Virus record (IMG/VR): IMGVR_UViG_3300015610_001396
Location: 62,001 to 86,440 of that record
DNA length: 24,440 bases
Origin: an uncultured virus (IMG/VR IMGVR_UViG_3300015610_001396)
Taxonomy: Duplodnaviria > Heunggongvirae > Uroviricota > Caudoviricetes
Direction: 5' to 3' (one strand)
Part shown: positions 4,784 to 24,440 of the stretch, one piece after another
How positions within the stretch are numbered: the stretch's first letter is position 1
Layout: every line of letters starts with the position of its first letter
Notes under the pieces: model-generated
Databases searched by the model: none
What the model saw: the letters and a program-made list of their open reading frames with translations, nothing else
Told to the model about the DNA's origin: nothing
Translations under genes and position numbers: made by a program

Positions 4784-4855
4784 TGGTGGAGAGTACGGGA
4801 GTCGAACCCGTCTGTCAGGCCTTGCAAAGGCCCGCACTGTCCCGACAGACTCCCC
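4784..4855 (-). tRNA. tRNA-Ala(UGC) with shortened, non-canonical D-arm and encoded CCA
   Basis: Acceptor GGGGAGT/ACTCTCC with G3:U70, ACCA end, anticodon arm GGGCC-TTTGCAA-GGCCT, T-arm ACGGG-TTCGACT-CCCGT. Confidence 0.85.
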
Positions 4856-6646: not shown

Positions 6647-6898
6647 TCACCCTTCAATATCTACAACGAGCTCGTAGCGCCATCGAACATGAATCATCTC
6701 GGGGGAAGACTCACTTTCCCGGCAAATCCAAAGGGTAAAACTGTCAGTCAATCCGGCATCAGCATGGTTTTTGATGTACTGCTGGACAGCAGACTCCATG
6801 TTGCTGGCGTCGTAGATTTCTGGCTCATCATTTGAGCTTCCGACAATCAAATTGTCTTCGGGAATCCAAGAATCCCAAATGTGGAACTTGCCCATCAT
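6647..6898 (-). CDS. hypothetical acidic protein (83 aa)
   Basis: ATGA overlap with the polymerase stop. Confidence 0.7.
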   Translation of the reverse strand: MMGKFHIWDSWIPEDNLIVGSSNDEPEIYDASNMESAVQQYIKNHADAGLTDSFTLWICRESESSPEMIHVRWRYELVVDIEG

Positions 6899-9531
6899 GC
6901 CACCTTGTACTTCTGCATCTGCCCCAGGCGCTTGCCGATTTTGACATCTGCGTTGAGTTTCACACCGAGCCAGCCAGCGTGGGCCGTCATTGCCTGAGTA
7001 GACACCGAAATGTATTCGGCCAGTGTGGACTCATGGACGATTCCGACAACAGAGTCGTGAATAGTAACCAGGAGCCGGGCTTGAGCATTGCTATCTTGAA
7101 TCCAACGAACGATGGGGGAGAGGGCAGCAGTTGTCAGATCCGCTGCAGTGCCCTGCACGGGCATGTTCCATGTCGACCTGATGGCGGTTTCCACCAGGGG
7201 TTTGTTGGGGTCGTTTCGGTCCCCAGAGTAGGGCAGGCCGAGGTTGGGCAGCGGGCGGAACCTGGCGTCCATCCCGCGCCATTTGGTGAACGCCCCACCC
7301 TGGGCCACCCCCGCCTTGTGGCGATCGGACATCCACTCACGCAGGCGCTTGTAGCGCCCGAAGATCATGTCCGCGATGCGCTGTGCGTCTTCGCGCGTGA
7401 CGTTTTTCTTGGTCTCTGCGCTCAGGGACTTGGACAGCATGTACCCGATATTTTCGGGGATTTCGTAGATAAGAGAAAAATTGGTAATTTTGGACGCCGT
7501 GCGCTGCTCGTCGGTGAAGTTTGGGCCGTAGATCAACTCAGCAGTCGCAGAGTGGAAGTCCTTGCCGGAATTGATAATTTCAAGCATGTCAGGATCCTGT
7601 GACAGCGCTGCAGCGACACGAATCTCCACTTGGGATTGGTCAATCTCAACGAGTACCCATCCCGGAGGAGCAGCCACACAATCGCGCAGCATCTTTCCTT
7701 CGACGGTACTAGCACGAGGCCAGTTTTGGAGATTAGGCCGCTGGTAGGAAAGCCTGCCAGTTTCAGTCCCGTCCAAGAGGGCAGTTGCATGGATCTTCCC
7801 GTCAGGGCAGATGCTGTTGCGCACCCCCTCGACGTAGGTGCTGAGCATCTTGGTCAGATGGCGCCACTCAAGGATGTCGTTGACGATGGGATGCTTGGTG
7901 CGCAGGGGCTCGAGTGACTTGTCGTCAGTGGAGATACCACCTGTCTTGGTCTTGCCCTTCGGGGGTAGCCCTACCGCCTCAAGCACCTTGATGAGCTGGG
8001 GCCTGGACCCAGGGTTGAACTCTCCTCCCAAGAGGGGTGCGTAGCTTTGCAGCCGTTGCTTGACTGGATCGAGCTCGAGCTCGATGTGCGCCTGCAGCAG
8101 GTTGAGCATGTCGCGGTCGATGGGGAGACCCCACTCCTCCATCTGCGTGAGCGCATGCGTGGCAGGCATCACCACCTCGTGAAACACCAGCTGCTGCCCT
8201 GGGGTCAACTGGTCCTGCAGCTCGCGCCAGAGCTTGATGGTGGCCGCTGTATCTCGCGCGTTGTAGCGGATGCGCACGTCCTGGGGGAGCCATCGATACA
8301 CCCAGGAGTCGAGTTCTGCTTCCTTGTTGTGCATCTCCTGCAGGAGCTCCGCAGGGATGGTGTGCACGGGAATCAGCGGGGGCGTGTATGGTGGGCGCGC
8401 CTTGCCGCTAGGGGTGGGCAGCAGCGAGGTGGCGTACTTCGTCAGCTGCTTTTTGACTTCCTGCAGCGTGTCACGCGCCTCCTTCTTGTGCCCTCCCATG
8501 CCGACGTGGACAGCACAGTTGGCGAGGTCTGCCGGAGCTGTGGGGTTGATCAGCTTGCACAGCAGTCGTGTATCGGCAACATACGCCACGAGGGGCGTAA
8601 GACTCGGATCGGCTGCCAGTGCGTGCTGATCGAATTTCCCGTTGTGTGCGACCTTAGCGATAGCGTCGTCCTGCAGGAGTCGACGGAGCGTAGCCACCCC
8701 ACCATCGAACGGATCGAGTCCTTCTGTATCCCAAACAGCAGAAACAATCTGATCTCCTTCGTACCAAGACAGCGCGAGCGACACGATCTCTTGGCTGTGA
8801 AACGCAGGACGCCAGGTCTCTACGTCGACGCCCACTGTGGGCTGGTCGCTGGATAGCAGGATGTGGTCGTAAATCTCCTGCGCGTCTTCCTCTGTGACAA
8901 CAACGAAGGTATGTGCGCCGATCTGGGCTCCGTGGTGTCGCTTCCACTTCCAGTTGACCATCTTGTCGATGAGCCTGGAGAACTTGGCGCGCACCAAACG
9001 ATTGCGCGCGATGTTCACAGGATCAGGCCCAAACCAGACAGGGAGGGGGCGCTCAGGGTTGTTCAACTTGCGAATAAAAGCATATCCCCCCGTAGCTGCG
9101 TCTGGCGCCACGCCATGCCCAAGCAATGAGTAGGCAGAAAGCGACCCAAGCAGCAGGATAGCCTTGGGATTTGTACGCTCAATCGCGTGCTTGACATACT
9201 TGCGACAAGCATCGACGTGCTCTTCCTCTGCTTCAGATGTAGCGCATCCTACCGCGTGCACAAAGGCCATGGGGATGTTCGGGGCCTTCTGGCTCAGGAT
9301 GGTGCGCACGGTTTTACCAGCGTTGCTGGTAAAAGGCATGCGCGTCACGTTGTCAGCCGCGGTCGGGAGATCGGAGATGACCAGCCATCCCTGGTCCCTC
9401 CCTTCCACAGAAATACACGGGCTAATCCCGGCCCTAGATCCAAGCTCGCAGTCATTACATCCGCCATTCGGGGCAGCCGATACGATTGCGTCCAAAGGAC
9501 TGTCAGGTTCATAGATTGCGAGTTTTTTCAT
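6895..9531 (-). CDS. polA: family A DNA polymerase with N-terminal uracil-DNA-glycosylase-like domain and 3'-5' exonuclease
   Basis: UDG-like CxxC...PF...AG...C...C...PKAILLLG; exonuclease motifs DVET, HNGKFD, YNARD; TGRLS..PNLQN; motif A DQSQVEIR; motif B RTASKITNF..IY; motif C TIHDS. Confidence 0.96.
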   Translation of the reverse strand: MKKLAIYEPDSPLDAIVSAAPNGGCNDCELGSRAGISPCISVEGRDQGWLVISDLPTAADNVTRMPFTSNAGKTVRTILSQKAPNIPMAFVHAVGCATSEAEEEHVDACRKYVKHAIERTNPKAILLLGSLSAYSLLGHGVAPDAATGGYAFIRKLNNPERPLPVWFGPDPVNIARNRLVRAKFSRLIDKMVNWKWKRHHGAQIGAHTFVVVTEEDAQEIYDHILLSSDQPTVGVDVETWRPAFHSQEIVSLALSWYEGDQIVSAVWDTEGLDPFDGGVATLRRLLQDDAIAKVAHNGKFDQHALAADPSLTPLVAYVADTRLLCKLINPTAPADLANCAVHVGMGGHKKEARDTLQEVKKQLTKYATSLLPTPSGKARPPYTPPLIPVHTIPAELLQEMHNKEAELDSWVYRWLPQDVRIRYNARDTAATIKLWRELQDQLTPGQQLVFHEVVMPATHALTQMEEWGLPIDRDMLNLLQAHIELELDPVKQRLQSYAPLLGGEFNPGSRPQLIKVLEAVGLPPKGKTKTGGISTDDKSLEPLRTKHPIVNDILEWRHLTKMLSTYVEGVRNSICPDGKIHATALLDGTETGRLSYQRPNLQNWPRASTVEGKMLRDCVAAPPGWVLVEIDQSQVEIRVAAALSQDPDMLEIINSGKDFHSATAELIYGPNFTDEQRTASKITNFSLIYEIPENIGYMLSKSLSAETKKNVTREDAQRIADMIFGRYKRLREWMSDRHKAGVAQGGAFTKWRGMDARFRPLPNLGLPYSGDRNDPNKPLVETAIRSTWNMPVQGTAADLTTAALSPIVRWIQDSNAQARLLVTIHDSVVGIVHESTLAEYISVSTQAMTAHAGWLGVKLNADVKIGKRLGQMQKYKVA

Positions 9532-10479: not shown

Positions 10480-10481
10480 AG

Positions 10482-10553
10482 AGCTGAGGATGGGAATCGA
10501 ACCCACAACCACTGGTTTACAAAACCAGCGCTCTGCCTTTGAGCTACCTCAGC
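10482..10553 (-). tRNA. tRNA-Thr(UGU), CCA not encoded
   Basis: Acceptor GCTGAGG/CCTCAGC, TAGCTCA..GG..GAGC D-arm, CTGGT-TTTGTAA-ACCAG anticodon arm, GTGGG-TTCGATT-CCCAT T-arm. Confidence 0.95.
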
Positions 10554-16803: not shown

Positions 16804-17369
16804 CACAGAAACTCTCCTGAAGCTACTCTCGCGTCGATGCGGGACTGCAGCGCTGCAGCTTGGTGCTCAGCTTCCAGCAGGGTGTCTGGATCGATACACC
16901 CAGACAGAGATTGCTGCCAGCACAAACGTGTGGCTGGGGGAAAAACGATGCGAGGGGGGCAGTTGAGCTTCAGCTGGTTGAACACCCGCATGTTGTGGCG
17001 ATTGAACACCTTGAGCGAGCACACATAGGTGTGCGGGATCGACATGTGCCGACTCTTGTTGGTGAACTCCCACAAGTAGGTACAAAACTTGACCCAGGCG
17101 GCGGGAGGGATCCGAGCGACTTCCAACGCACAGTAGGCGTTATCCCACATCAGCTTGTGTGTGGGATAAATCGTTTTGGCAGCGTGGGGGCCGAGGCAGC
17201 GCGAGGAAATGAAGAGCTTGGCCAAGTACTGCCCACCTGAGAGGGTAGGGACGGCCAGGGGGGCCGCAGGGATGATAGCCCGCGGGAGGTCGAGTAGCTT
17301 TGCGTACTGTGCACGATGTTCGGCGTGGGTGCTTGCCGAAATGAGGTCGTCCAGTTCGTGCCTGATCAC
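16800..17369 (-). CDS. hypothetical protein (about 190 aa; start at 17369 or 17420)
   Basis: Long ORF; GTG at 17369 overlaps the TGA of the upstream micro-ORF. Confidence 0.6.
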   Translation of the reverse strand: MIRHELDDLISASTHAEHRAQYAKLLDLPRAIIPAAPLAVPTLSGGQYLAKLFISSRCLGPHAAKTIYPTHKLMWDNAYCALEVARIPPAAWVKFCTYLWEFTNKSRHMSIPHTYVCSLKVFNRHNMRVFNQLKLNCPPRIVFPPATRLCWQQSLSGCIDPDTLLEAEHQAAALQSRIDARVASGEFLW

Positions 17370-17512
17370 ATGCGGTTTGCTTGTTGTGGTGTGGTGAGTG
17401 CGAGGTGTGTGATCTTCCATGTGAGGTGTTTGCGCGGGCGCACTCTCACTTCCATGTCTGTATTGCACATCGGGTACACAAGATACGCTTCGTGAGCTGC
17501 AACCATCAGCAT
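17366..17512 (-). CDS. micro-ORF (48 aa, MLMVAAHEAY...)
   Basis: ATGCTGA junction with the upstream ORF. Confidence 0.5.
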   Translation of the reverse strand: MLMVAAHEAYLVYPMCNTDMEVRVRPRKHLTWKITHLALTTPQQANRM

Positions 17513-17649
17513 AGGAATATCGTGCCTCTGTAGGGAGCAAAAACTCGGTAGCGGGGAAATCCAACACATAGGGCGTTGGTAGATGGCATTATTGCTGCCT
17601 TACAGCGAGAACTCCTGCCCCTAATCAGGAAAAATGCAAATGGCATCAT
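17506..17649 (-). CDS. micro-ORF (47 aa, MMPFAFFL...IFLC)
   Basis: ATGA overlap upstream, ATGCTGA overlap downstream. Confidence 0.5.
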   Translation of the reverse strand: MMPFAFFLIRGRSSRCKAAIMPSTNALCVGFPRYRVFAPYRGTIFLC

Positions 17650-17846
17650 TGAGCGAATACCCCCAACCCTAAGTTCCAAACAGCGCGCATAAAGAAGTAA
17701 TGGAGGTTCAGGTGGAGCATCTTTCGGCTTTTGATGAAGCGTGTAGCAACGTAAGGGTAGCGGTACCCCATTGCGAGCTGAGTGTGGTTGGCCTGCATCA
17801 TGTGCATAGGTGTTCCCACTTTCCAACTAGAGACAGGCAGCAGCAT
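17646..17846 (-). CDS. micro-ORF (66 aa, MLLPVSSWK...)
   Basis: Starts 4 nt after the helicase stop; N-terminus resembles 21657-21839 (MLLMSCSWK). Confidence 0.55.
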   Translation of the reverse strand: MLLPVSSWKVGTPMHMMQANHTQLAMGYRYPYVATRFIKSRKMLHLNLHYFFMRAVWNLGLGVFAQ

Positions 17847-17850
17847 CTAC

Positions 17851-19236
17851 CTATCGGAGCTTTCCGTAGTGAGACTTTCGATCGAGGAAGTGCGAAATCA
17901 GCATTGCGCAGTCTCTATGCGCTGAGCCAGCACATCCGCACCCGATGTCGGCAAAGTCGTAGACCGGAAACTCCGTCTTGATTTCCTTGCCCTCCGAGTA
18001 TCGACGCGCTGCGCGTCCTACTTTCTGGATGACAGGGATAGCGGCTTTGCCTCCAGCCAAATTCATCATGCTGGCTACGACAGGAACGTCTACACCTTGT
18101 TGAAATACATCGGTACAAACGAGGATGTCCAGCTCACCACGCTTGATGTTCGCCAGAGTTTGTGCGTTTTCTGCTTTGCCAGTTTCTCCAGTAGCGAGAG
18201 CTGTACGAAAACCTGACGGGTTTCTATCTCGCAGACGCGCGTAAATGCTTCTGGCGTGCTCGACGCTTTTCGTAAATACCATGATCGGCTTGGGAGCAGA
18301 TTGAATCGCGCTGATTGCAGCTGCATTTCGCGGCTGATTGTTAGAGATCGCTGCCATGTAAGCGTCATGCCATACAGCGAGGGAGGTGTCTGTGGGTTCA
18401 TGCTGGTAAGGCAAGTACACAACCTGGGGGGCAGCAACTGCTTTCAGGTCGGTAACAGCCTCCTTGAATGTGATTTTGTGCAGCACAGGGCCGAAAGCCC
18501 CGATCACATAGTAGTGCTTCTGGTCAGCGCGCAGCATTGCTGTCGCACTCAGCCCGTATCGGTAGTAGGCGTTGACAAACCTGTTCATCAGCGTCTGGCA
18601 GGTCGGTGAAGCCGCTCCGTGGACCTCATCGTAGATGACCTGCTGATACCGATCCCAGGGGAATCGCTGGGCCTCGTTGAGCGCCTGGTAGGTACACACA
18701 ACCAGATCGCTGATCTGGTGGAACCCACCACCGTAGACCGTTGGGGCCACATTCAACCTGGCCTTGAAGCGCTCAACGATCTGCTGCAGCAGCGGCTCGT
18801 TGGGCACGATGATCACTGTCGGAAGCGGGCGGATGGCGTATAGTGCGACCACAAGCTCGCCCTTCCCGGTCCCAGTCGGATGACTGAATATGCCACGGGG
18901 CATTTTGCGAGCAGCGCTAATGGCGTCTTGCTGATAATCACGAAGCCAATCGGTGCTCGTACATCGAGCTGGGTCGGCCCTTGGTACTTGCCTACGGTCG
19001 GACAGAGCATACTCAACCCCCAGCGGCTTGATCCATTGGTCCATGACGAAGCGCATCATGCCTGTGGCGAAGCGTACAGCGCTCTTGCCTGGCACAGGCT
19101 CCCCCATGGAAAGAATTGCGGATCCCGCGCGCCCTACTCGAGCCCTAAACGAGAGTGCTCCGCGCAGAGAGGCGAGCGTTTTTGCATCAGCGTGAGCCAG
19201 GGTGCTCACATTTCCAATCTCAAAAATGACAGGCAT
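17851..19236 (-). CDS. superfamily 2 DExH helicase (UvsW/T5 D10-like)
   Basis: LRDYQ Q-motif, PTGTGK, DEVH, GLSAT, GVDVP, QKVGRAAR. Confidence 0.92.
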   Translation of the reverse strand: MPVIFEIGNVSTLAHADAKTLASLRGALSFRARVGRAGSAILSMGEPVPGKSAVRFATGMMRFVMDQWIKPLGVEYALSDRRQVPRADPARCTSTDWLRDYQQDAISAARKMPRGIFSHPTGTGKGELVVALYAIRPLPTVIIVPNEPLLQQIVERFKARLNVAPTVYGGGFHQISDLVVCTYQALNEAQRFPWDRYQQVIYDEVHGAASPTCQTLMNRFVNAYYRYGLSATAMLRADQKHYYVIGAFGPVLHKITFKEAVTDLKAVAAPQVVYLPYQHEPTDTSLAVWHDAYMAAISNNQPRNAAAISAIQSAPKPIMVFTKSVEHARSIYARLRDRNPSGFRTALATGETGKAENAQTLANIKRGELDILVCTDVFQQGVDVPVVASMMNLAGGKAAIPVIQKVGRAARRYSEGKEIKTEFPVYDFADIGCGCAGSAHRDCAMLISHFLDRKSHYGKLR

Positions 19237-19242
19237 GGCTAC

Positions 19243-19410
19243 CTATAACACGCATCGTGCTTTGGTGTTCCAAATTGGGTGCCAGTAGTCTGACTTTTGC
19301 GACGTTCCTGGGTGCATACAAATGAGAATCCGGCCTGTGTATTTAGATTCAGAGCAACGGCTCAGCCCATGTTTAGGAGTGCCCCACAGTAAAAACTGAT
19401 TTAGCTGCAT
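19243..19410 (-). CDS. array microprotein (55 aa), SDxW family
   Basis: Contains ILICMHPGTSQKSDYW. Confidence 0.75.
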   Translation of the reverse strand: MQLNQFLLWGTPKHGLSRCSESKYTGRILICMHPGTSQKSDYWHPIWNTKARCVL

Positions 19411-19411
19411 C

Positions 19412-19573
19412 TCACACCAAATTGAATTGCCAGTTGTTTTTTCTGTTGCACGCTCGCGTTGCCCAGAAATCTGAGCCTCCTAAGTCGTCACCGCTGTACA
19501 TGTAGATGACCATGCGCCCGCGCCATAGGCGGACGCGTGAAGTCCGCTCTTTGCGGTTGCAGTGAAGTTTCAT
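19412..19573 (-). CDS. array microprotein (53 aa), SDxW family
   Basis: Contains MVIYMYSGDDLGGSDFW; ATGA coupling. Confidence 0.75.
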   Translation of the reverse strand: MKLHCNRKERTSRVRLWRGRMVIYMYSGDDLGGSDFWATRACNRKNNWQFNLV

Positions 19574-19719
19574 GTCACCACGTACAGTTTCTGTGTGTAA
19601 TACAATCCATCAGGTGCCGCGAGATCGTAAATGTACCACCAAGGAAAAAACACAGTTAGGTAGTAAACAAAGGCGGTGTGGTTTTGCATTGACCTATTTA
19701 GGGCGTAGTGAAGTTTCAT
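19570..19719 (-). CDS. array microprotein (49 aa, MKLHYALN...)
   Basis: ATGA overlaps at both ends; shares the MKLH start with its neighbour. Confidence 0.65.
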   Translation of the reverse strand: MKLHYALNRSMQNHTAFVYYLTVFFPWWYIYDLAAPDGLYYTQKLYVVT

Positions 19720-19889
19720 GTTTTTTGTGTCAGTTGTACTGGCGCAACCAGTTTCCATTGGTCTGAGCGCTCGAGGTCAATTGAACGGCACATAAACTCA
19801 AATAGCTGGGTGCCTGAGTGGCAGACTACAGGGAGTCTGGTGGTGCCTGATGCATGCGATTGCGGGCAGATGTGGGCACGCACAAACAT
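19716..19889 (-). CDS. array microprotein (57 aa), SDxW family
   Basis: Contains LFEFMCRSIDLERSDQW. Confidence 0.7.
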   Translation of the reverse strand: MFVRAHICPQSHASGTTRLPVVCHSGTQLFEFMCRSIDLERSDQWKLVAPVQLTQKT

Positions 19890-19892
19890 GAC

Positions 19893-20036
19893 CTACTCCA
19901 GCAAAATGAACCCCATGTCGCGTCTCCGTTGACCCCAAAAGTCGCTCTTTTGGTAATCACCGATGTGCATGTACGCGTACAATCGGTAGATGGCGTACTC
20001 GATGACTGCGAGGTATGTGAAGTTCAACAGCAGCAT
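19893..20036 (-). CDS. array microprotein (47 aa), SDxW family
   Basis: Contains LYAYMHIGDYQKSDFW. Confidence 0.75.
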   Translation of the reverse strand: MLLLNFTYLAVIEYAIYRLYAYMHIGDYQKSDFWGQRRRDMGFILLE

Positions 20037-20170
20037 TTGTGATGCCTTTTATCTCCTGCAAAGATCCACGGGTCGGACTTGAGAGTAATTCCAGGGATCA
20101 TGGATACTCTCAGCGCCAACAGAGGCATTGCGATACGCTTGAGGCCGTCACCTCCATCCATACAGAGCAT
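20024..20170 (-). CDS. array microprotein (48 aa), SDxW family (start uncertain)
   Basis: Contains LRVSMIPGITLKSDPW; ends CCC overlapping the next ATG. Confidence 0.65.
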   Translation of the reverse strand: MLCMDGGDGLKRIAMPLLALRVSMIPGITLKSDPWIFAGDKRHHKCCC

Positions 20171-20627
20171 CTTCTACATCCAGCAGTTTGTCGCGGTTTT
20201 TTGTGTTCGGGTCGCGCAGCTTAGCTGCGAGCAGGCGTGCCGCTTGGGCGATTTCTACGGCACGTTCCATATCGAGATGCGCATCGCTCCCGATATGGGC
20301 CACTTCATCAAGCTCTTGTGTGTACTGCTTGCCTTCTCTGATTGAGCTGTAAAGCATCCTGCGCGGGACACGATCTGGTCGCACGGCTTGCAGGTACAGA
20401 GTGGCTACATCGTTCTGGGCGCATCGCCACAGGTAGGCGCTCAGGTCGCCTTTGGTGGGGTCGTAACCGCCGCTGTTGAGCACCTCAAGGCACTTCACCA
20501 CAGCGGTGTTTACCAGGTCTTCGTAGTCGATGTGGGTGTGCTTGATGGCTCTTCGGTATCTGGAAGCCAGAACTCTTGAAGCTTTCATCACAGCATTTAT
20601 CTGCTCTTGTGTGTAGCGATCAGCCAC
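20148..20627 (-). CDS. sigma-70 family protein, region 2 only
   Basis: LASRY...DYEDLVNTAVV..LE....YDPTKGDLSAYLW; AGGAG RBS before GTG; no clear region-4 HTH. Confidence 0.8.
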   Translation of the reverse strand: MADRYTQEQINAVMKASRVLASRYRRAIKHTHIDYEDLVNTAVVKCLEVLNSGGYDPTKGDLSAYLWRCAQNDVATLYLQAVRPDRVPRRMLYSSIREGKQYTQELDEVAHIGSDAHLDMERAVEIAQAARLLAAKLRDPNTKNRDKLLDVEDALYGWR

Positions 20628-20634
20628 ATAGCTC

Positions 20635-20799
20635 CTATGCTGTTAGTTGAAGTGAACCCTGCCCGTACGTCGAATCCTCAAATCTCCGGTAATGCGCCCA
20701 AAAATCAGATTTGGTGTACTCCCCGTCTTGCATGGACCAGAAGAGGTAGGACGGGTAGCGGGTTGCTTGGCGAACACGAGAAAGATGTTTGATGGTCAT
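20635..20799 (-). CDS. array microprotein (54 aa), SDxW family
   Basis: Contains LFWSMQDGEYTKSDFW. Confidence 0.8.
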   Translation of the reverse strand: MTIKHLSRVRQATRYPSYLFWSMQDGEYTKSDFWAHYRRFEDSTYGQGSLQLTA

Positions 20800-20803
20800 T
20801 GAA

Positions 20804-20980
20804 TCACACCTTCAGAACTAGGGTGACGTTGCCCATAAATGTCGTGTTGCTGTAGTTGGTGGTTCTACACCACCAATCAGCTTTCTTGTATGGGCCACTG
20901 TACATGCTCCAAGAAAGGTCACTTGTGCCTAGTGGGACATATTTGGCCAAGGCACGAAAACCAGTGTTCTTCACAAGCAT
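20804..20980 (-). CDS. array microprotein (58 aa), SDxW family
   Basis: Contains LSWSMYSGPYKKADWW. Confidence 0.8.
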   Translation of the reverse strand: MLVKNTGFRALAKYVPLGTSDLSWSMYSGPYKKADWWCRTTNYSNTTFMGNVTLVLKV

Positions 20981-20981
20981 T

Positions 20982-21167
20982 TTACACCAAAAGCAGCAGA
21001 GCTGCGTAGCGGAAGTCCACGAAGAGATCGCCGCGTTTTGACGCCCAATGGCCAGACCTTACGTATTCCTCATTGGGGCCCCAATCTAGCCATCGTCTGC
21101 TTATGGCAACATGCCGTCGTGAGGGACAAATTGGACAACGTGGATGGTACCCAACAGCGGTCAACAC
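20982..21167 (-). CDS. array microprotein (61 aa), degenerate motif
   Basis: Contains LDWGPNEEYVRSGHW; GTGTTGA junction. Confidence 0.6.
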   Translation of the reverse strand: MLTAVGYHPRCPICPSRRHVAISRRWLDWGPNEEYVRSGHWASKRGDLFVDFRYAALLLLV

Positions 21168-21346
21168 TTCTGCACCTCGGCTGAGGAGTCCAAGATCGTG
21201 TGAAACACTATATCGCACGCGCCCGTGTTCCTGGCCCAACGCAGAAGGACAATGCGCGCTTCTGCACCACCAGGGCGCATGAGGTAAAGGCATCTAGGCC
21301 ATCTGTCATTGGGATAACTTGGGTGCTGCGCTTGTGTGCAGAGCAT
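21161..21346 (-). CDS. array microprotein (61 aa), partial motif
   Basis: GAGGA before ATG; contains LYLMRPGG. Confidence 0.6.
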   Translation of the reverse strand: MLCTQAQHPSYPNDRWPRCLYLMRPGGAEARIVLLRWARNTGACDIVFHTILDSSAEVQKC

Positions 21347-21352
21347 GGATCC

Positions 21353-21511
21353 TCAGGTGAGAAAGAATGGGAACTTTGTCACAGAAGCTGCCAAATCGAG
21401 CCAGTCGTGGCCGCTACTCCATGCCCCAAGATAGGGAGGGCTGATCAGCCGTGCGGGTTTGGCACTGGGGCACCTATAAAGAAAACCCCAACGCTCTGGG
21501 AGCACCATCAT
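21353..21511 (-). CDS. array microprotein (52 aa, MMVLPERWG...)
   Basis: ATGA coupling; tiles the array. Confidence 0.55.
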   Translation of the reverse strand: MMVLPERWGFLYRCPSAKPARLISPPYLGAWSSGHDWLDLAASVTKFPFFLT

Positions 21512-21663
21512 AGGACACCCAAGTGCGGTTCGTGGTGCATGAAGTCATACCACTCACGATCAAGCAGCGCCCCTGCTGTGTCGTTGAACCAGATTGTCAG
21601 CCAGTGATCGCAGGCCTTCACTTCTTTTTGTGTGTTGCTGGGTGCTCCCATGATAGCTAGCAT
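21508..21663 (-). CDS. array microprotein (51 aa, MLAIMGAP...)
   Basis: ATGCTAG junction; contains KACDHW. Confidence 0.55.
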   Translation of the reverse strand: MLAIMGAPSNTQKEVKACDHWLTIWFNDTAGALLDREWYDFMHHEPHLGVL

Positions 21664-21839
21664 GCGAAGCGATCTTTCAGGTTGTCGGGTGTTCCGTGCT
21701 CATTCAAGGCGCGCAAACTCAAACGTGCCATTCTTTGCAAGAACTTGATCCCTTCTTTGAGCGCAATCACATAGGAAAAATTCCTGCGATCACGCCTAGT
21801 TGGTTGCGGGTTTTTCCAAGAGCAGGACATTAGCAGCAT
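21657..21839 (-). CDS. array microprotein (60 aa, MLLMSCSWK...)
   Basis: ATGCTGCTAA junction upstream, ATGCTAG junction downstream. Confidence 0.55.
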   Translation of the reverse strand: MLLMSCSWKNPQPTRRDRRNFSYVIALKEGIKFLQRMARLSLRALNEHGTPDNLKDRFAC

Positions 21840-21976
21840 AGGCGTTGGGATGAATAGGCTGTGTTGTGGAATTTCCACATACGAGCATCTTCGCCGGCCA
21901 ATGCGAATGGGAGCGGATAGAAAGAGGCCCACCCTATCCTTGTCAGGCAGGATGTTGCAAATCTTGTAACGGTCAT
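21830..21976 (-). CDS. array microprotein (48 aa, MTVTRFAT...RLCC)
   Basis: Tiles the gap and ends CC overlapping the next start; an alternative frame is also open. Confidence 0.45.
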   Translation of the reverse strand: MTVTRFATSCLTRIGWASFYPLPFALAGEDARMWKFHNTAYSSQRLCC

Positions 21977-21984
21977 AGCGGCAC

Positions 21985-22167
21985 TCAGCAGATGATCAGC
22001 ATATCTTTGTGCCTAAATTCCACAAACTTTCGATACTTGCCTTCTATCGCGCACCACCAGTCTGAGCGAATCAATGTTGCTCCCGGCTGCATTGCCCAGA
22101 ACAGAAGTGTTAGACCCCTGTATGATTTGGCGCAATACATCGGCACTTTATTTTCGTATACGTTCAT
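21985..22167 (-). CDS. array microprotein (60 aa), SDxW family
   Basis: Contains LFWAMQPGATLIRSDWW. Confidence 0.8.
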   Translation of the reverse strand: MNVYENKVPMYCAKSYRGLTLLFWAMQPGATLIRSDWWCAIEGKYRKFVEFRHKDMLIIC

Positions 22168-22174
22168 GCGCGAC

Positions 22175-22357
22175 TCAGCAGTTGAGGTTCATGTGTTTTT
22201 GGTTGAAATGCAGAGGCTGCCCATAGATCGGCCCAATGCACCAAAAATCTGGTCCACGAACGGGCCAGCCTCGTTGCATAGACCAGTAGAGAATGTCCAC
22301 ACACCTAGAACATTGCGTGGGGAATGCTGCCCATCTGTAGTGCTCACAGATCAGCAT
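22175..22357 (-). CDS. array microprotein (60 aa), SDxW family
   Basis: Contains LYWSMQRGWPVRGPDFW; ATGCTGA junction. Confidence 0.78.
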   Translation of the reverse strand: MLICEHYRWAAFPTQCSRCVDILYWSMQRGWPVRGPDFWCIGPIYGQPLHFNQKHMNLNC

Positions 22358-22497
22358 ACACGCACCAGCACATTTAGGGTGAAAGATCGCGCTCGAATAA
22401 ACCAGTGGGTATGATTTGCCCAATTGGGCGACCAAAGACACATGGGTACAAGGTTCCGAAAATCGTACCGCAATGCCGAACTGGTATGAAGTATCAT
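22351..22497 (-). CDS. array microprotein (48 aa, MILHTSSA...)
   Basis: ATGA and ATGCTGA overlaps; degenerate CLWSPNWANHTHW. Confidence 0.55.
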   Translation of the reverse strand: MILHTSSALRYDFRNLVPMCLWSPNWANHTHWFIRARSFTLNVLVRVC

Positions 22498-22640
22498 AGA
22501 CGACACAATCCGTTTCTAACGCGCCCGAAACCCAACAACCACCAAGGGTCGGATTTGCAATAGCCTTTCTCGTGCATCGACTCACGCAAGCTCTTGGAGG
22601 GGGTGTGGTGTTTCGGAGTTTGTAACGCCAAGATGCTCAT
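22494..22640 (-). CDS. array microprotein (48 aa), SDxW family
   Basis: Contains LRESMHEKGYCKSDPW; ATGA overlaps at both ends. Confidence 0.78.
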   Translation of the reverse strand: MSILALQTPKHHTPSKSLRESMHEKGYCKSDPWWLLGFGRVRNGLCRL

Positions 22641-22810
22641 GTTGCAATCTTGTGCCAATAGGCCCGTTTAGTGGGTGCACACAAGTCGCGGATCCAATTA
22701 TCAGACTTGACCCATTCAATCCCCGGGTGCATCGACCAGTGCAATCTATCGCTGGGCGAGCCCACTTTAGGAGCCGGCCTCATACCTGTGGTGGCGTAGA
22801 GGACTTTCAC
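22637..22810 (-). CDS. array microprotein (57 aa), SDxW family
   Basis: Contains LHWSMHPGIEWVKSDNW; GTGA overlap with the upstream gene. Confidence 0.8.
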   Translation of the reverse strand: MKVLYATTGMRPAPKVGSPSDRLHWSMHPGIEWVKSDNWIRDLCAPTKRAYWHKIAT

Positions 22811-23688
22811 AGCGTCAACACATCAGCAGTCTGCTTCTCGATCATCGCGTCGCTGATCTGCTTGCGCAGAAGCTCCAGGTTGGTGCCGAGCAGCTTCTCG
22901 TACATGACGATCTTGTTGATGCCCGCCTCGGCTTCCGCTGCAGCCTTCTCCAAGGTCGACGCGCGGGGCCCATACTTCCCAGGCTCCTTCTCGGTGGAGA
23001 GCGCCTTGCGGCGAATCTCCATGGTGTCCTGAGCGAGCTTGGCGGCTTCCTCCCCGAGCGCGGCGATCACGGCAGCCACAGCGTCGGGTCCGTCCATCGC
23101 GGGGATCTGAAAAATGCTCACCGTGGGAAAGCACTTCACGATGTCGAGCCAGCGCTGCTTGGTCTCCGGGGGCACGAAGTACACGCCGCCAGCGGCGCGC
23201 AGCCCCAGGCCGTTGATGGCCGGCGAGCGAACGATACGGGCCAGGAAGCTGCCCACGGCAGAGCTGTCCAGGGTGCCCCAGATGCGATCGAACTGATCCT
23301 GCAGCATCTCCTCATCGAAGATGTCGCGCTGCTCAGCCATGTCCTTGTAGTGGAGCTTGCCCTCCGAATCGGCAGACACGCACCACAGGCAGTGGTAGTC
23401 GCTGGAGTTTTTGCTGCCGGTGTGGCGGTACAGGCCGATGGTGCCTGAGGGCTCTCCCTTCACTGGCATCACCTTCGTCATACCACCACGCGTGGTGTGA
23501 GATGCCTCCAGCGCAGTCGTGAGAACCTTACCTGGGGACATACGAGCGGGAAGTGCATCGGCCCCGACCAGCGAACGCGCGGTAAGTGCCTGGCAAGTGA
23601 AATCGTAATGAACACTGCCCTGGATGCTCCAGTAGGTGACGATGCCGCAGGCGGGGGTGTTGTCCTTGACAGCGATGATCTGGGTCAT
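22807..23688 (-). CDS. DUF6744-like phage protein (293 aa)
   Basis: G.VTYWSI N-terminus, LRAAGGVYFVP motif and helical C-terminus, recalled from this family; AAGGGA RBS; ATGA overlap. Confidence 0.6.
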   Translation of the reverse strand: MTQIIAVKDNTPACGIVTYWSIQGSVHYDFTCQALTARSLVGADALPARMSPGKVLTTALEASHTTRGGMTKVMPVKGEPSGTIGLYRHTGSKNSSDYHCLWCVSADSEGKLHYKDMAEQRDIFDEEMLQDQFDRIWGTLDSSAVGSFLARIVRSPAINGLGLRAAGGVYFVPPETKQRWLDIVKCFPTVSIFQIPAMDGPDAVAAVIAALGEEAAKLAQDTMEIRRKALSTEKEPGKYGPRASTLEKAAAEAEAGINKIVMYEKLLGTNLELLRKQISDAMIEKQTADVLTL

Positions 23689-23906
23689 GGTGGTTGTTCC
23701 CTTGGACACGTTGAAATGAAAGCGAGCCGCTGCTGCTCAAGCGCATCAAGAGCAGCCTGCACACGCAGATCATGCTTGCGTGCGCGTTCAGGAAAGAGCT
23801 CTCCACGACAGTGCTCAAAGCACCAGTGGCAGAGGCCTCGGTAGATTGTGTTTGTGATGGGACAGTCGAGTTGGCTGTCTTGGCACGCGGCGCAGTGGCA
23901 TTTCAT
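23685..23906 (-). CDS. small Cys-rich (zinc-finger-like) protein (73 aa)
   Basis: CxCxxC...C...CxxCxxxC pattern; ATGA coupling at both ends. Confidence 0.65.
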   Translation of the reverse strand: MKCHCAACQDSQLDCPITNTIYRGLCHWCFEHCRGELFPERARKHDLRVQAALDALEQQRLAFISTCPREQPP

Positions 23907-24085
23907 GTGTGAAGAGCCCAGGTCACATCCACAAAATACTCATCAGTCACTAGATGGGATCCTGGTGGGCCCCAAGAATACCCCCAGCGCCGCACCTCTC
24001 CTAGTACGCGCAGCCGCCCGCGGGCTGCTAGCACCTGGCGCGCAGCCCTCAGCGTGGACCATTTTACGATGGTTAGGCATTTCAT
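23903..24085 (-). CDS. micro-ORF (60 aa, MKCLTIVKW...)
   Basis: TAAGGAG RBS; YSWGPPGSHLVTDEY loosely resembles the array motif. Confidence 0.6.
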   Translation of the reverse strand: MKCLTIVKWSTLRAARQVLAARGRLRVLGEVRRWGYSWGPPGSHLVTDEYFVDVTWALHT

Positions 24086-24101
24086 GTGAGCAGTGCGCTC
24101 C

Positions 24102-24278
24102 TTATTGCTGACCACAAGACTTGCTTATGGGCAGCAGAAAGATCGCGGTCGCCTCAAGATTAGCAAAGCATCTGCCAGGTGGCGTGACGATCATCCCCTT
24201 CAACCATGAGCGTATCTGCCGGTCTTGCCCACCGCCAATCCCATGTGGACGGATGGCGCGCCAGATCGGTTGACGCAT
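24102..24278 (-). CDS. micro-ORF (58 aa, MRQPIWRA...)
   Basis: Open frame whose TAA stop merges into the next RBS. Confidence 0.4.
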   Translation of the reverse strand: MRQPIWRAIRPHGIGGGQDRQIRSWLKGMIVTPPGRCFANLEATAIFLLPISKSCGQQ

Positions 24279-24440
24279 AGCTGACTGACTGGGATCGTTG
24301 GCGATCTACAATGATTATCCGCATGGCAAACGCTCGTGTCGGATGGATCGCGTTCTCCAGAAATACGGATGACTGGTCTTGCTGCCCAATAGGTATGACA
24401 GGCCAAACGAAGCCCGCATAGGAACAATCCTGCTGGTCGG

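Follow-up and report, generated by a model that had tools for sequence, protein, structure and literature searches.

In lytic phages, hyperplastic or accessory regions and host-takeover modules take the form of clusters of many small early genes, as in the plastic regions of T4-type phages and the host-takeover module of SPO1. Accessory phage genes can also change in copy number: a phage homing endonuclease is described as amplifying anti-defense genes to evade bacterial immunity (PMC13096335). In polymorphic toxin and cassette systems, as presented in PMC3482391, a conserved part is joined to C-terminal modules that are swapped by recombination.

We analyzed a 24.4-kb window (the whole stretch of 24,440 nucleotides) from the complete, circularly closing 86-kb genome of an uncultured wastewater phage. 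The window contains a tight, partly overlapping string of minus-strand genes (19243-22810) located between a DUF6744-like gene and a helicase, eleven of which encode microproteins of one lineage-specific, tandemly amplified family. The phage carrying this array is novel, and the family is an orphan, previously undescribed.

Layout of the array

Minus-strand ORFs of at least 45 aa cover 99.2% of the array. In dinucleotide shuffles of the same region the mean coverage is 65% and the maximum 89.6%, with 0 of 500 shuffles at the observed value. The first-pass annotation had described overlaps or gaps of at most 8 nt; the tight tiling holds, but the 8-nt limit does not, since with the starts chosen here the overlap reaches 23-43 nt at some junctions. 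ATGA and GTGA overlaps are present between array ORFs, and TGA is the most frequent stop. Searches of the array for DNA repeats, tandem repeats, tRNAs and Rfam families were negative.

The motif-bearing ORFs are 47-60 aa long and are spread over all three reading frames. For member 2, database gene callers use an alternative ATG at 22640, giving 48 aa (P0013). The internal ATG of the ORF at 19570-19758 forms an ATGA overlap with the stop of the preceding gene, and this ORF and member 10 have identical first four codons (MKLH) through an exact 15-nt repeat.

Features of the array and its neighbours, in array order, with E-values from leave-one-out (LOO) HMMs
Feature	Coordinates	Strand	Description	LOO E
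DUF6744-like gene (upstream)	22807..23709	-	300 aa, divergent relative; homologues P0105 and P0106 match PF20529 DUF6744	
Member 1	22637..22810	-	57 aa, LHWSMHPGIEWVKSDNW; GTG start; 4 nt overlap with stop of DUF6744-like gene	6.4e-7
Member 2	22494..22658	-	54 aa from TTG, LRESMHEKGYCKSDPW	1.3e-3
Motif-less small ORF	22351..22506	-	51 aa; outside the family by HMM	
Member 3	22175..22357	-	60 aa counted from internal ATG, LYWSMQRGWPVRGPDFW	9.2e-5
Member 4	21985..22167	-	60 aa, LFWAMQPGATLIRSDWW; orthologue P0009	6.9e-8
Central motif-less small-ORF block	20982..21976	-	six ORFs: 21830-21976, 21657-21839, 21508-21663, 21353-21511, 21161-21346, 20982-21293	
Member 5	20804..20980	-	58 aa, LSWSMYSGPYKKADWW	1.1e-7
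Member 6	20635..20799	-	54 aa, LFWSMQDGEYTKSDFW	2.5e-9
Sigma-like gene interrupting the array	20148..20627	-	159 aa, region 2 only; TIGR02937, phrog_1740, position	
Member 7	20024..20170	-	48 aa, LRVSMIPGITLKSDPW	4.6e-4
Member 8	19893..20036	-	47 aa, LYAYMHIGDYQKSDFW	1e-6
Member 9 (marginal)	19716..19889	-	57 aa, LFEFMCRSIDLERSDQW; all-member core HMM 24.6 bits	0.067 (rank 12)
Small ORF without full motif	19570..19758	-	internal ATG at 19719	
Member 10	19412..19573	-	53 aa, MVIYMYSGDDLGGSDFW	5.8e-5
Member 11	19243..19410	-	55 aa, ILICMHPGTSQKSDYW; final gene ahead of helicase	1.8e-4
Superfamily-2 helicase (downstream)	17851..19236	-	ResIII and Helicase_C domain matches	

The sigma-like gene is the only gene that interrupts the array, as had been claimed. 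Its label is indirectly right: the match to TIGR02937 (sigma70-ECF superfamily; E 9.1e-5, 22.1 bits) lies below the cut-off of 42.9 and that to phrog_1740 has an E-value of 0.028, while the gene occupies the position of Sigma70_r2 genes in relatives. The DUF6744 label of the upstream neighbour is likewise right by way of its homologues, the protein itself having no direct Pfam match.

Conservation and membership of the family

Eleven ORFs share the motif L-x-W-S-M-x-x-G-x(3-4)-[KR]-S-D-x-W within a 17-residue core, and all eleven peptides quoted in the first-pass annotation are present as written. The loose pattern [KRGE][SAP]D.W has 11 matches in the six frames of the window, all on the minus strand (19296-22708) and all with a Met 8-9 residues upstream; the rest of the genome has 6 further matches, none of them in this context. 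In the codon-level alignment Ser is encoded by TCG, TCT, TCC, TCA and AGC, Lys or Arg by AAA, AAG, CGC and AGG, Asp by GAT and GAC, and the motif Gly by all four of its codons. Information content is minimal at third codon positions (0.90/1.30/0.03 bits for the Gly codon), and the motif spacer changes only by whole codons, in steps of +3 nt. The third-position wobble, the exchanges between Lys and Arg and between TCN and AGC codons, and the 3-nt spacer steps agree with the earlier proposal of protein-level conservation. As judged from these sequence patterns, the core is kept by selection acting on the protein.

Leave-one-out HMMs recovered 10 of the 11 members, the omitted one ranking 11th of 1931 six-frame segments with E-values from 2.5e-9 to 1.3e-3; the remaining one, member 9, is marginal. 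A core-only HMM gives the members 24.6-39.5 bits and the best non-member segment of the genome 9.2 bits. None of the 8 other array ORFs appears among the top 35 genome segments of this search. Nineteen motif-carrying microproteins had been counted at first; since these eight fall outside the family, its size is 11, and the degenerate motif versions visible by eye in several ORFs are without statistical support by HMM. The ORFs of the central block are outside the family by HMM, and no counterpart of them was found in a relative, L002.

The eleven paralogs are 17-35% identical to each other in pairs. The idea that a gene family was amplified here, with flanks that vary around a constant core, stands, and a relative keeps the motif although its array DNA does not align. 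The members are very probably a real family of coding paralogs under selection. Their GC3 of 0.59 exceeds GC1 (0.46) and GC2 (0.45) and is the highest of the three in 10 of 11 members, and in 5 of 7 non-member array ORFs. Shine-Dalgarno-like pairing is of the same strength as in the long genes of the phage (-3.0 and -3.2 kcal/mol, respectively; background -1.95; P 0.07). A coding model trained on those long genes scored 10 of 11 members as 'non-coding' because their composition is atypical. Contigs from RNA libraries cover the sigma-like gene and two members only, and may be DNA carry-over. Promoter and terminator scans gave results at shuffle level.

Recurrence and turnover

An HMM built from the window members alone finds independent members in relatives, five in L002 and two in L003. 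A search of 5.8 billion proteins recovered 18 small proteins, and an exhaustive search of 1.84 billion gave 16 matches, 12 of which are small proteins. Family members thus occur again in an uncultured relative of this phage and among metagenome proteins, all within one narrow clade. The first-pass annotation did not recognise the family, and indeed it has no match among Pfam (even at E up to 10), PHROG, NCBIfam or PDB entries. None of the 43 more distant phage loci with the flanking DUF6744 gene contains it, and on this evidence the family appears to be accessory; about 20 of these loci have the helicase downstream as well.

An uncharacterised repeat domain of the dinoflagellate Prorocentrum (C..V.WAMQTGI...PDWY..L..SSFEDFQ) resembles the family locally, over 23 columns (W-[AS]-M-Q-x-G ... 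D-W-[WY]). The E-value of this match is inflated by the three repeats, and profile-profile comparison gives a probability of only 17.5% (P 0.0014, the target having been selected out of 1.8 billion proteins). The domain is Cys-framed and extends into SSFEDFQ, features that the phage proteins lack, and we judge it a look-alike.

Turnover of the family is rapid: members are lost, replaced and recombined between strains, with N- and C-terminal halves exchanged at the motif. The array has no blastn match in L002, where the flanking genes are 77-78% identical. Strain contig comparison reveals a deletion of 19421-20146, comprising four members and one other ORF, and a replacement of 22374-22733. The chimera P0006 is 100% identical to member 6 in its N-half and 96% identical to member 5 in its C-half; between P0016 and an L002 member, the N-halves share 82% but the C-halves 16%.

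The orthologue of member 4 carries 7 changes, which all fall within the first 25 residues and leave the last 35 untouched, and of the 10 changes in P0011, 8 are outside the central 28 residues; counting against constraint, 5 of 6 changes in P0017 fall within the motif. Compared with a strain of ~90% identity, every indel in member 5 and in the ORF at 21508-21663 is frame-compensated. Among close strains, DNA could be compared for a single pair, L002 and L003. Here one member has 10 substitutions in ~140 nt, distributed 5/3/2 over codon positions, whereas 13 of the 16 substitutions across the 1386 nt of the helicase are at third positions. This member has no purifying signal outside the motif.

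Candidate roles and related systems

The best explanation as a whole, to which we give slightly less than an even chance, is a selected paralog family of putative accessory host-interaction proteins. The core would serve as a common scaffold or docking element, probably a helix-turn-helix-cap packed around the two Trp, and the variable N- and C-terminal tails may give each copy a separate specificity. The array would then be a set of dispensable proteins for host takeover or counter-defence. Host interaction is the likeliest role, though its probability is below even. The roles put forward in the first-pass annotation (a docking core, anti-defence, decoys, RNAP or sigma modulation) are candidates. 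AlphaFold2 models of two members have pLDDT values of 52 and 44 and yielded no structural neighbours, and the ESM Atlas model of member 4 has a pLDDT of 0.58; with no confident predicted structure, function is inferred only.

It is less likely that the members are small nucleic-acid-binding or transcription/replication modulators, acting on DNA, RNA or RNA polymerase together with the sigma-like protein. Under this reading the microproteins may have replaced, in this clade, the sigma, ParB-like or HTH proteins that fill the slot in relatives. The members are basic (pI at least 8.4 in 10 of 11) and rich in Trp, Tyr, Cys and Met, with about three times the Trp and twice the Tyr of the phage's long genes, and adjacency to the sigma-like gene is kept in L002. 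Six slot intervals checked in distant relatives contain sigma and ParB_N genes, with an HTH_17 gene in one; ParB_N has a single weak match in this genome, elsewhere than the array (E 0.012). However, no nucleic-acid-binding family, HTH and ParB included, is matched by the members even with E-values up to 10. Strains can also dispense with entire members, and a core regulator is not expected as eleven divergent copies.

Largely functionless, decaying duplicates of an amplified small gene, drifting and being lost until the motif alone is recognisable, are improbable. Their near-random composition, rich in Cys, His and Trp, would fit decay, as would the lack of a confident fold from either model, the eight neighbouring ORFs without a recognisable motif, the loss of copies between strains and the neutral-looking substitutions of the L002/L003 member. 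Yet the motif persists across phages with unalignable array DNA, reading frames remain open, indels are frame-compensated, orthologue pairs retain long invariant stretches, and Trp reaches 4.5%, where base composition alone would predict a much lower 1.6%.

Still less probable is that every microprotein forms a single beta-alpha-beta-beta-beta module of the VOC (glyoxalase/bleomycin-resistance) fold, modules pairing as homo- or heterodimers to form a binding cleft that could, for example, sequester a small molecule. Of 10 alignment rows for the Atlas model of member 4, 8 are to VOC, PhnB-like and bleomycin-resistance modules (52-58 residues, TM 0.56-0.61), and we read the length of ~55 aa, the strand-like N-terminal M-x-[ILV] and the alternating hydrophobic C-termini as fitting one module. 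But the Atlas itself cautions against reading much into TM >0.5 over short stretches, a search of the genome with PF00903 was empty up to E 10, the family matches neither Pfam at that threshold nor PDB sequences, and the AlphaFold2 models (pLDDT 52 and 44) have no structural neighbour.

A library of RiPP precursor peptides, with the motif as the recognition sequence of a modifying enzyme and variable Cys-rich C-termini as cores, is very unlikely. The tandem array of short divergent peptides, its one recognition-like motif and several Cys-rich C-termini recall such a library; against it, a scan of 100 distinct larger ORFs (15 + 85) found no radical-SAM, YcaO, lanthipeptide or peptidase family, two of the members lack Cys, the motif lies in the centre and does not form a long N-terminal leader, and N-termini vary as much as C-termini. 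Most doubtful, and already disfavoured, is a nucleotide-level element (a repeated promoter, an RNA motif or TGA-recoded longer genes) with incidental ORFs, for which the 'non-coding' scores and frequent TGA stops speak, and against which stand the three-base period of conservation with free third positions and the Ser codon switch, the +3 nt spacer changes, the lack of DNA repeat, Rfam or tRNA matches, the use of all three frames, the failure of TGA read as Trp to give a coherent long gene, and a promoter scan at shuffle level.

As a putative set of accessory host-interaction proteins, the array resembles the T4-type and SPO1 modules in being a dense same-strand string of tiny unannotated genes between conserved replication genes, with content that varies between close relatives. 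It differs in that eleven of the genes belong to a single paralogous family built on a strict 17-residue core; all-against-all BLAST of 17 intervals from distant relatives found no within-locus paralogs. The expansion of small accessory phage genes, presumably under host pressure, is shared with the case described in PMC13096335; there, as reported, a homing endonuclease promoted a segmental amplification that is recent, whereas the array copies are old (given their low identity), no endonuclease was seen adjoining them, and anti-defence is a candidate role. Compared with the polymorphic toxins as described in PMC3482391, the array proteins are small and lack toxin, immunity or trafficking domains, and their core is flanked by variable sequence on both sides. 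They share with them a constant segment combined with variable modules, and the breakpoints of the array chimeras lie in or beside that segment.

A tandem array of eleven paralogous microgenes

All genes of the window lie on the minus strand, and the window forms the final 24.4 kb of a virus record of 86,440 bp. The two ends of this record share a 22-bp overlap, and IMG/VR classes it as bearing direct terminal repeats and 100% complete. In the interval from a 300-aa gene to a superfamily-2 helicase gene, about 19 short ORFs tile this strand together with one gene of 159 aa. Minus-strand ORFs of at least 45 aa cover 99.2% of the interval, against a mean of 65% and a maximum of 89.6% in dinucleotide shuffles, none of 500 reaching the observed value. 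Several junctions are ATGA or GTGA overlaps. Eleven of the short ORFs, hereafter members, carry the core L-x-W-S-M-x-x-G-x(3-4)-[KR]-S-D-x-W, and together they occupy all three reading frames.

Features of the window and of the whole-genome record
Feature	Position	Strand	Remarks
Array of short ORFs	19243-22810	-	
300-aa gene	22807-23709	-	DUF6744-like; upstream border of the array interval
Superfamily-2 helicase gene	17851-19236	-	ResIII, Helicase_C; downstream border of the array interval
Sigma-like gene	20148-20627	-	159 aa; inside the array interval
Member 2	22494-22658	-	
Member 4	21985-22167	-	
Member 5	20804-20980	-	
Member 6	20635-20799	-	
Member 9	19716-19889	-	
Member 10	19412-19573	-	
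Exact 15-nt direct repeat	19561-19575 and 19707-19721		spans the start and first four codons (MKLH)
Cys-rich ORF	23685-23906	-	73 aa; upstream of the DUF6744-like gene
DNA polymerase A	6895-9531	-	878 aa; N-terminal uracil-DNA-glycosylase-superfamily domain (PF03167, E 6.6e-7), then 3'-5' exonuclease, polymerase
tRNA-Thr(TGT)	10481-10553	-	ARAGORN and Rfam (72.6 bits)
tRNA-Ala(TGC)	4784-4855	-	doubtful: ARAGORN only, absent from Rfam at E up to 1
1053-aa ORF	L005:16538-19699	+	whole-genome record, outside the window; intein splicing domain (PF14890, E 2e-10)
DUF2201 VWA-like and putative metallopeptidase protein	L005:851-2116	-	whole-genome record, outside the window; adjoins a 453-aa ORF of unknown family

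The first-pass annotation described 19 microproteins with a common motif. The eleven motif peptides that it quoted are correct: the loose pattern [KRGE][SAP]D.W has 11 matches in a six-frame translation of the window, all on the minus strand within the array interval and each with a Met 8-9 residues upstream, while the rest of the 86-kb genome holds six matches, none of them in this context. For 10 of the 11 members, an HMM built from the other ten placed the omitted one 11th among 1931 six-frame segments (E 2.5e-9 to 1.3e-3); member 9 is marginal, with rank 12 and E 0.067. The membership had to be reduced to 11, however: members score 24.6-39.5 bits with a core-only HMM, against 9.2 bits for the next best genome segment, and the top 35 segments include none of the other eight array ORFs. 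Nor do these eight have a counterpart in the related uncultured phage L002. The degenerate motif versions attributed to them, such as LYLMRPG (21161-21346) and RSGHW (20982-21293), are fragments recognised by eye, without statistical support. One non-member ORF (19570-19758) shares, at an internal ATG, the MKLH first codons and the 15-nt stretch with member 10, which suggests the trace of a partial duplication.

The proposal that conservation acts at the protein level is borne out when 16 copies (the 11 of the window and five of one relative) are aligned codon by codon. Core serines are encoded by TCG, TCT, TCC, TCA and AGC, and the K/R position by AAA, AAG, CGC and AGG. The core glycine uses all four codons, with 0.90, 1.30 and 0.03 bits of information at positions 1, 2 and 3, and the spacer between G and K varies in length by whole codons only. 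No tandem repeat, tRNA or Rfam match was found in the array, scans for DNA repeat families detected none beyond 13-16-mers, and direct or inverted repeats are otherwise absent. Reading TGA as Trp produces no coherent longer gene. Because conservation follows codons, all three frames are in use and these searches were empty, a repeated DNA or RNA element is a very unlikely explanation of the array, and a non-coding element is the least credible of the readings considered here.

Composition gives further indications. GC3 of the members (0.59) exceeds GC1 (0.46) and GC2 (0.45), and in 10 of 11 the third position has the highest GC; a 182-aa ORF on the other strand lacks this periodicity. When trained on the long genes of the phage, a Markov model favours 'non-coding' for 10 of 11 members, but is uninformative because the composition of the array is atypical (GC1 in the long genes is 0.65). 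Shine-Dalgarno-like pairing upstream of the starts is -3.0 kcal/mol, level with the long genes (-3.2) and stronger than the background (-1.95), though not significantly (P 0.07). Promoters and terminators show no excess over shuffles. Contigs from an RNA library (X19) extend over the sigma-like gene, two of the members and the flanks; they may be DNA carry-over, and stretches that they leave uncovered carry no information. The encoded proteins are basic (pI at least 8.4 in 10 of 11) and enriched in Cys, Tyr, Met and Trp, the last making up 4.5% of residues, where the long genes have 1.4% and base composition predicts 1.6%. Taken at the level of sequence, the analyses show a real, protein-coding and lineage-specific family of eleven tandem paralogs with a selected 17-residue core.

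Distribution, turnover and chimeras

The family, which the first-pass annotation did not recognise, matches nothing described in the libraries searched and is new to Pfam-A, PHROGs, NCBIfam (two members) and the PDB sequences. Pfam at E up to 10 returned no family for 10 of 11 members and, for one, a sole match to PriCT_2 at chance level (E 0.055). PHROGs v4 gave nothing better than E 0.1, NCBIfam nothing for the two members tested, and a profile search of PDB sequences at E up to 10 no matches. A literature search, which was not exhaustive, found no description of such an array.

The search beyond this genome that had been suggested with the annotation recovered five members in L002, two in a short metagenome contig (L003) and a number of metagenome proteins. 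In the IMG/VR contig (L001/L002/L009) the flanking genes are 76% (300-aa protein) and 81% (helicase) identical in amino acids. By blastn the 2.3-kb interval between them shows no match to the window, in contrast to flanks with 77-78% DNA identity; its five ORFs were recognised by an HMM built from the window only (E 1.4e-5 to 1.8e-3), as were the two in L003. With the family profile, 18 proteins were recovered from 5.8 billion by a word-seeded search; an exhaustive HMM search, run on 1.84 billion cluster representatives, gave 16 matches. All credible matches are 47-86 aa long, unnamed and without Pfam domains.

Four long, repetitive proteins from the exhaustive search (P0019, P0021, P0024 and P0026) were rejected: their E-values arise from 3-26 repeats of a weak match and represent score inflation. 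One of them, P0026 of the dinoflagellate Prorocentrum, contains three copies of ...VMWAMQTGIVKNPDWY..., strikingly similar by eye to the phage motif. It was rejected as a relative after Atlas, homologue and hhalign checks. Since hhalign of the members with 72 dinoflagellate domain copies gives a probability of only 17.5% over 23 columns (reversed control 0.1%), we regard the WAMxxGI...PxWY repeat domain as a look-alike. In its own right it is a large uncharacterised Prorocentrum/protist repeat domain (P0026, P0028-P0100) of the form C..G..CY..V.WAM..GI..HP.WYPGL...SSFEDFQ..LH, without a Pfam model.

The distribution of the family is narrow. Positions 17000-24440 have no blastn match among 50,697 phage records, and the DNA polymerase A of this phage is at most 27% identical to that of any cultured phage. 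IMG/VR searches with two matching database proteins (P0025, P0023) and a homologue of the DUF6744-like protein (P0105) found nothing; the helicase alignment found nothing among genome contigs and two short contigs only among metagenomes. Near-identical sequence occurs in wastewater and activated-sludge runs (20 runs from 10 studies listed), most of the 20 holding small shares of the sampled words.

A 43-kb contig from run X15, representing a strain about 90% identical, spans the region and reveals copies deleted or replaced in a related strain. It lacks 19421-20146, comprising four members and one other ORF, with 8 nt in their place, and 22374-22733 is replaced by 99 other letters. Inside the array, these differences amount to the presence or absence of whole genes. 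Its indels in member 5 (+1/-1; -1,-1,-1; -3; -1/+1) and in the ORF 21508-21663 (+1/-1) restore the frame in every case. Between members and their orthologues among the database proteins, constraint is uneven: all seven between P0009 and member 4 fall within the first 25 residues, eight of ten between P0011 and member 6 lie outside the central 28 residues, and five of six between P0017 and member 2 are inside the motif. L002 and L003 are the only close pair with DNA. Between them, one member carries 10 substitutions over roughly 140 nt, distributed 5/3/2 over codon positions, compared with 16 in 1386 nt of the helicase gene, 13 of them at third positions. Outside the core, a purifying signal is absent from this member. 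That the array consists of functionless duplicates under drift is improbable.

Some of the database proteins are natural chimeras. P0006 joins an N-half with 100% identity to member 6 to a C-half with 96% identity to member 5. P0016 has 82% of its N-half, but 16% of its C-half, in common with one L002 member, and P0018, read by eye, has the C-half but not the N-terminus in common with the same member. The exchange points, located in or adjoining the motif, point to the core as the site of exchange. The family is accessory, being absent from relatives and variable between strains, and it is reshuffled at its core.

The interval between the DUF6744-like and helicase genes

The 300-aa upstream protein has no direct Pfam match at E up to 10; its homologues (47% and 28% identity) match DUF6744 (PF20529) with E 1.3e-7 and 1.7e-8. 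Upstream of its gene, the product of the Cys-rich ORF, which is 55% identical over 67 aa in L002 and has no family match, may be a small zinc-binding protein. The sole interruption of the small-ORF tiling is, as first annotated, the sigma-like gene, whose match to TIGR02937 (sigma70-ECF) is weak (E 9.1e-5; 22.1 bits against a cut-off of 42.9) and covers the region-2 part only. A search of the genome for PF04542 at E up to 1 was negative.

In many distant phages, uncultured and 70-140 kb in size (L010-L046), the genes follow the order DUF6744 - Sigma70_r2 - ParB_N - small/HTH_17 - helicase. Using the alignment of DUF6744-like proteins, we fetched 43 further distant-phage loci, about 0.5 Mb in total. 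They contain no family members, the best false match having E 0.017 among 10,054 segments, and the search doubles as a negative control for the family HMM. In about 20 of the 43 the helicase gene lies 1.5-5.5 kb downstream of the DUF6744 gene, and the 17 intervals compared hold ORFs of ordinary size without within-locus paralogs. Six intervals were scanned for domains: a Sigma70_r2 gene and a ParB_N gene were each found in five, and an HTH_17 protein in one (L030:3936-4232, E 1.9e-6). The sigma-like gene occupies the position of the Sigma70_r2 genes in five of six relatives checked, and the only ParB_N-like match in this genome is weak (E 0.012) and located elsewhere. It follows from the gene content of the distant intervals that the window lineage has kept the sigma-like gene and filled the rest of the slot with microgenes: between DUF6744 and helicase lies a conserved slot, and one lineage has exchanged its content.

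Possible roles of the family

We tentatively favour the reading that the members are dispensable host-interaction proteins acting in takeover or counter-defence. The core would give all copies the same scaffold or docking element, and specificity would reside in the tails, an arrangement that fits such a role. The main rival, which we consider unlikely, is that they are small nucleic-acid- or RNAP-directed modulators that replaced the ParB and HTH genes of the slot; none of the 11 members matches any helix-turn-helix family, HTH_17 and MerR-like included, at E up to 10.

A further reading, in our judgement quite unlikely, is a phage-borne, recombination-shuffled library of microprotein binders, in which the core would serve both as a scaffold and as DNA microhomology for the exchange of N- and C-halves among paralogs and co-infecting strains. 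If true, shuffling would continuously yield new tail combinations, hence new specificities against host factors, and would amount to a cassette-type mechanism of diversification that acts on proteins as small as about 55 residues.

AlphaFold2 predictions for two members (alignments of 27 and 31 rows) reached pLDDT 52 and 44, and the first model had no structural neighbour (Foldseek against the PDB; VIA wide search). A homodimer prediction for member 4 scored 0.00, which speaks neither for nor against pairing. The low-confidence model that the ESM Atlas gives for member 4 is similar (TM 0.56-0.61) to single beta-alpha-beta-beta-beta modules of the VOC/glyoxalase type. A search of the six genome frames for PF00903 at E up to 10, however, was negative (13 of 14 control genomes were positive), and the Pfam scan and PDB sequence searches of the members found no VOC family. 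The likeness is a lead only, as no sequence method backs it, and VOC-like half-modules are a highly improbable identity. RiPP precursor peptides are more remote still: no cognate modifying or recognition enzyme was detected by Pfam in 100 larger ORFs (85 from the genome, at E up to 1e-4, and 15 from the window) of 109 crudely called.

Small phage proteins, of which a review (PMC11323111) speaks in millions, constitute a large and mostly unread share of phage genomes. The array offers an unusually tractable case, with eleven natural variants of one core side by side. If these are host-interaction factors, they form a ready panel in which to look for a new target or for a novel route to specificity; should they be drifting duplicates only, the array is a clean example of microgene birth and loss in a phage. 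Plastic clusters of tiny accessory genes are a general phenomenon in phages. The present array stands out for its eleven paralogs with a strict core, for having taken over a conserved slot and for its chimeras.
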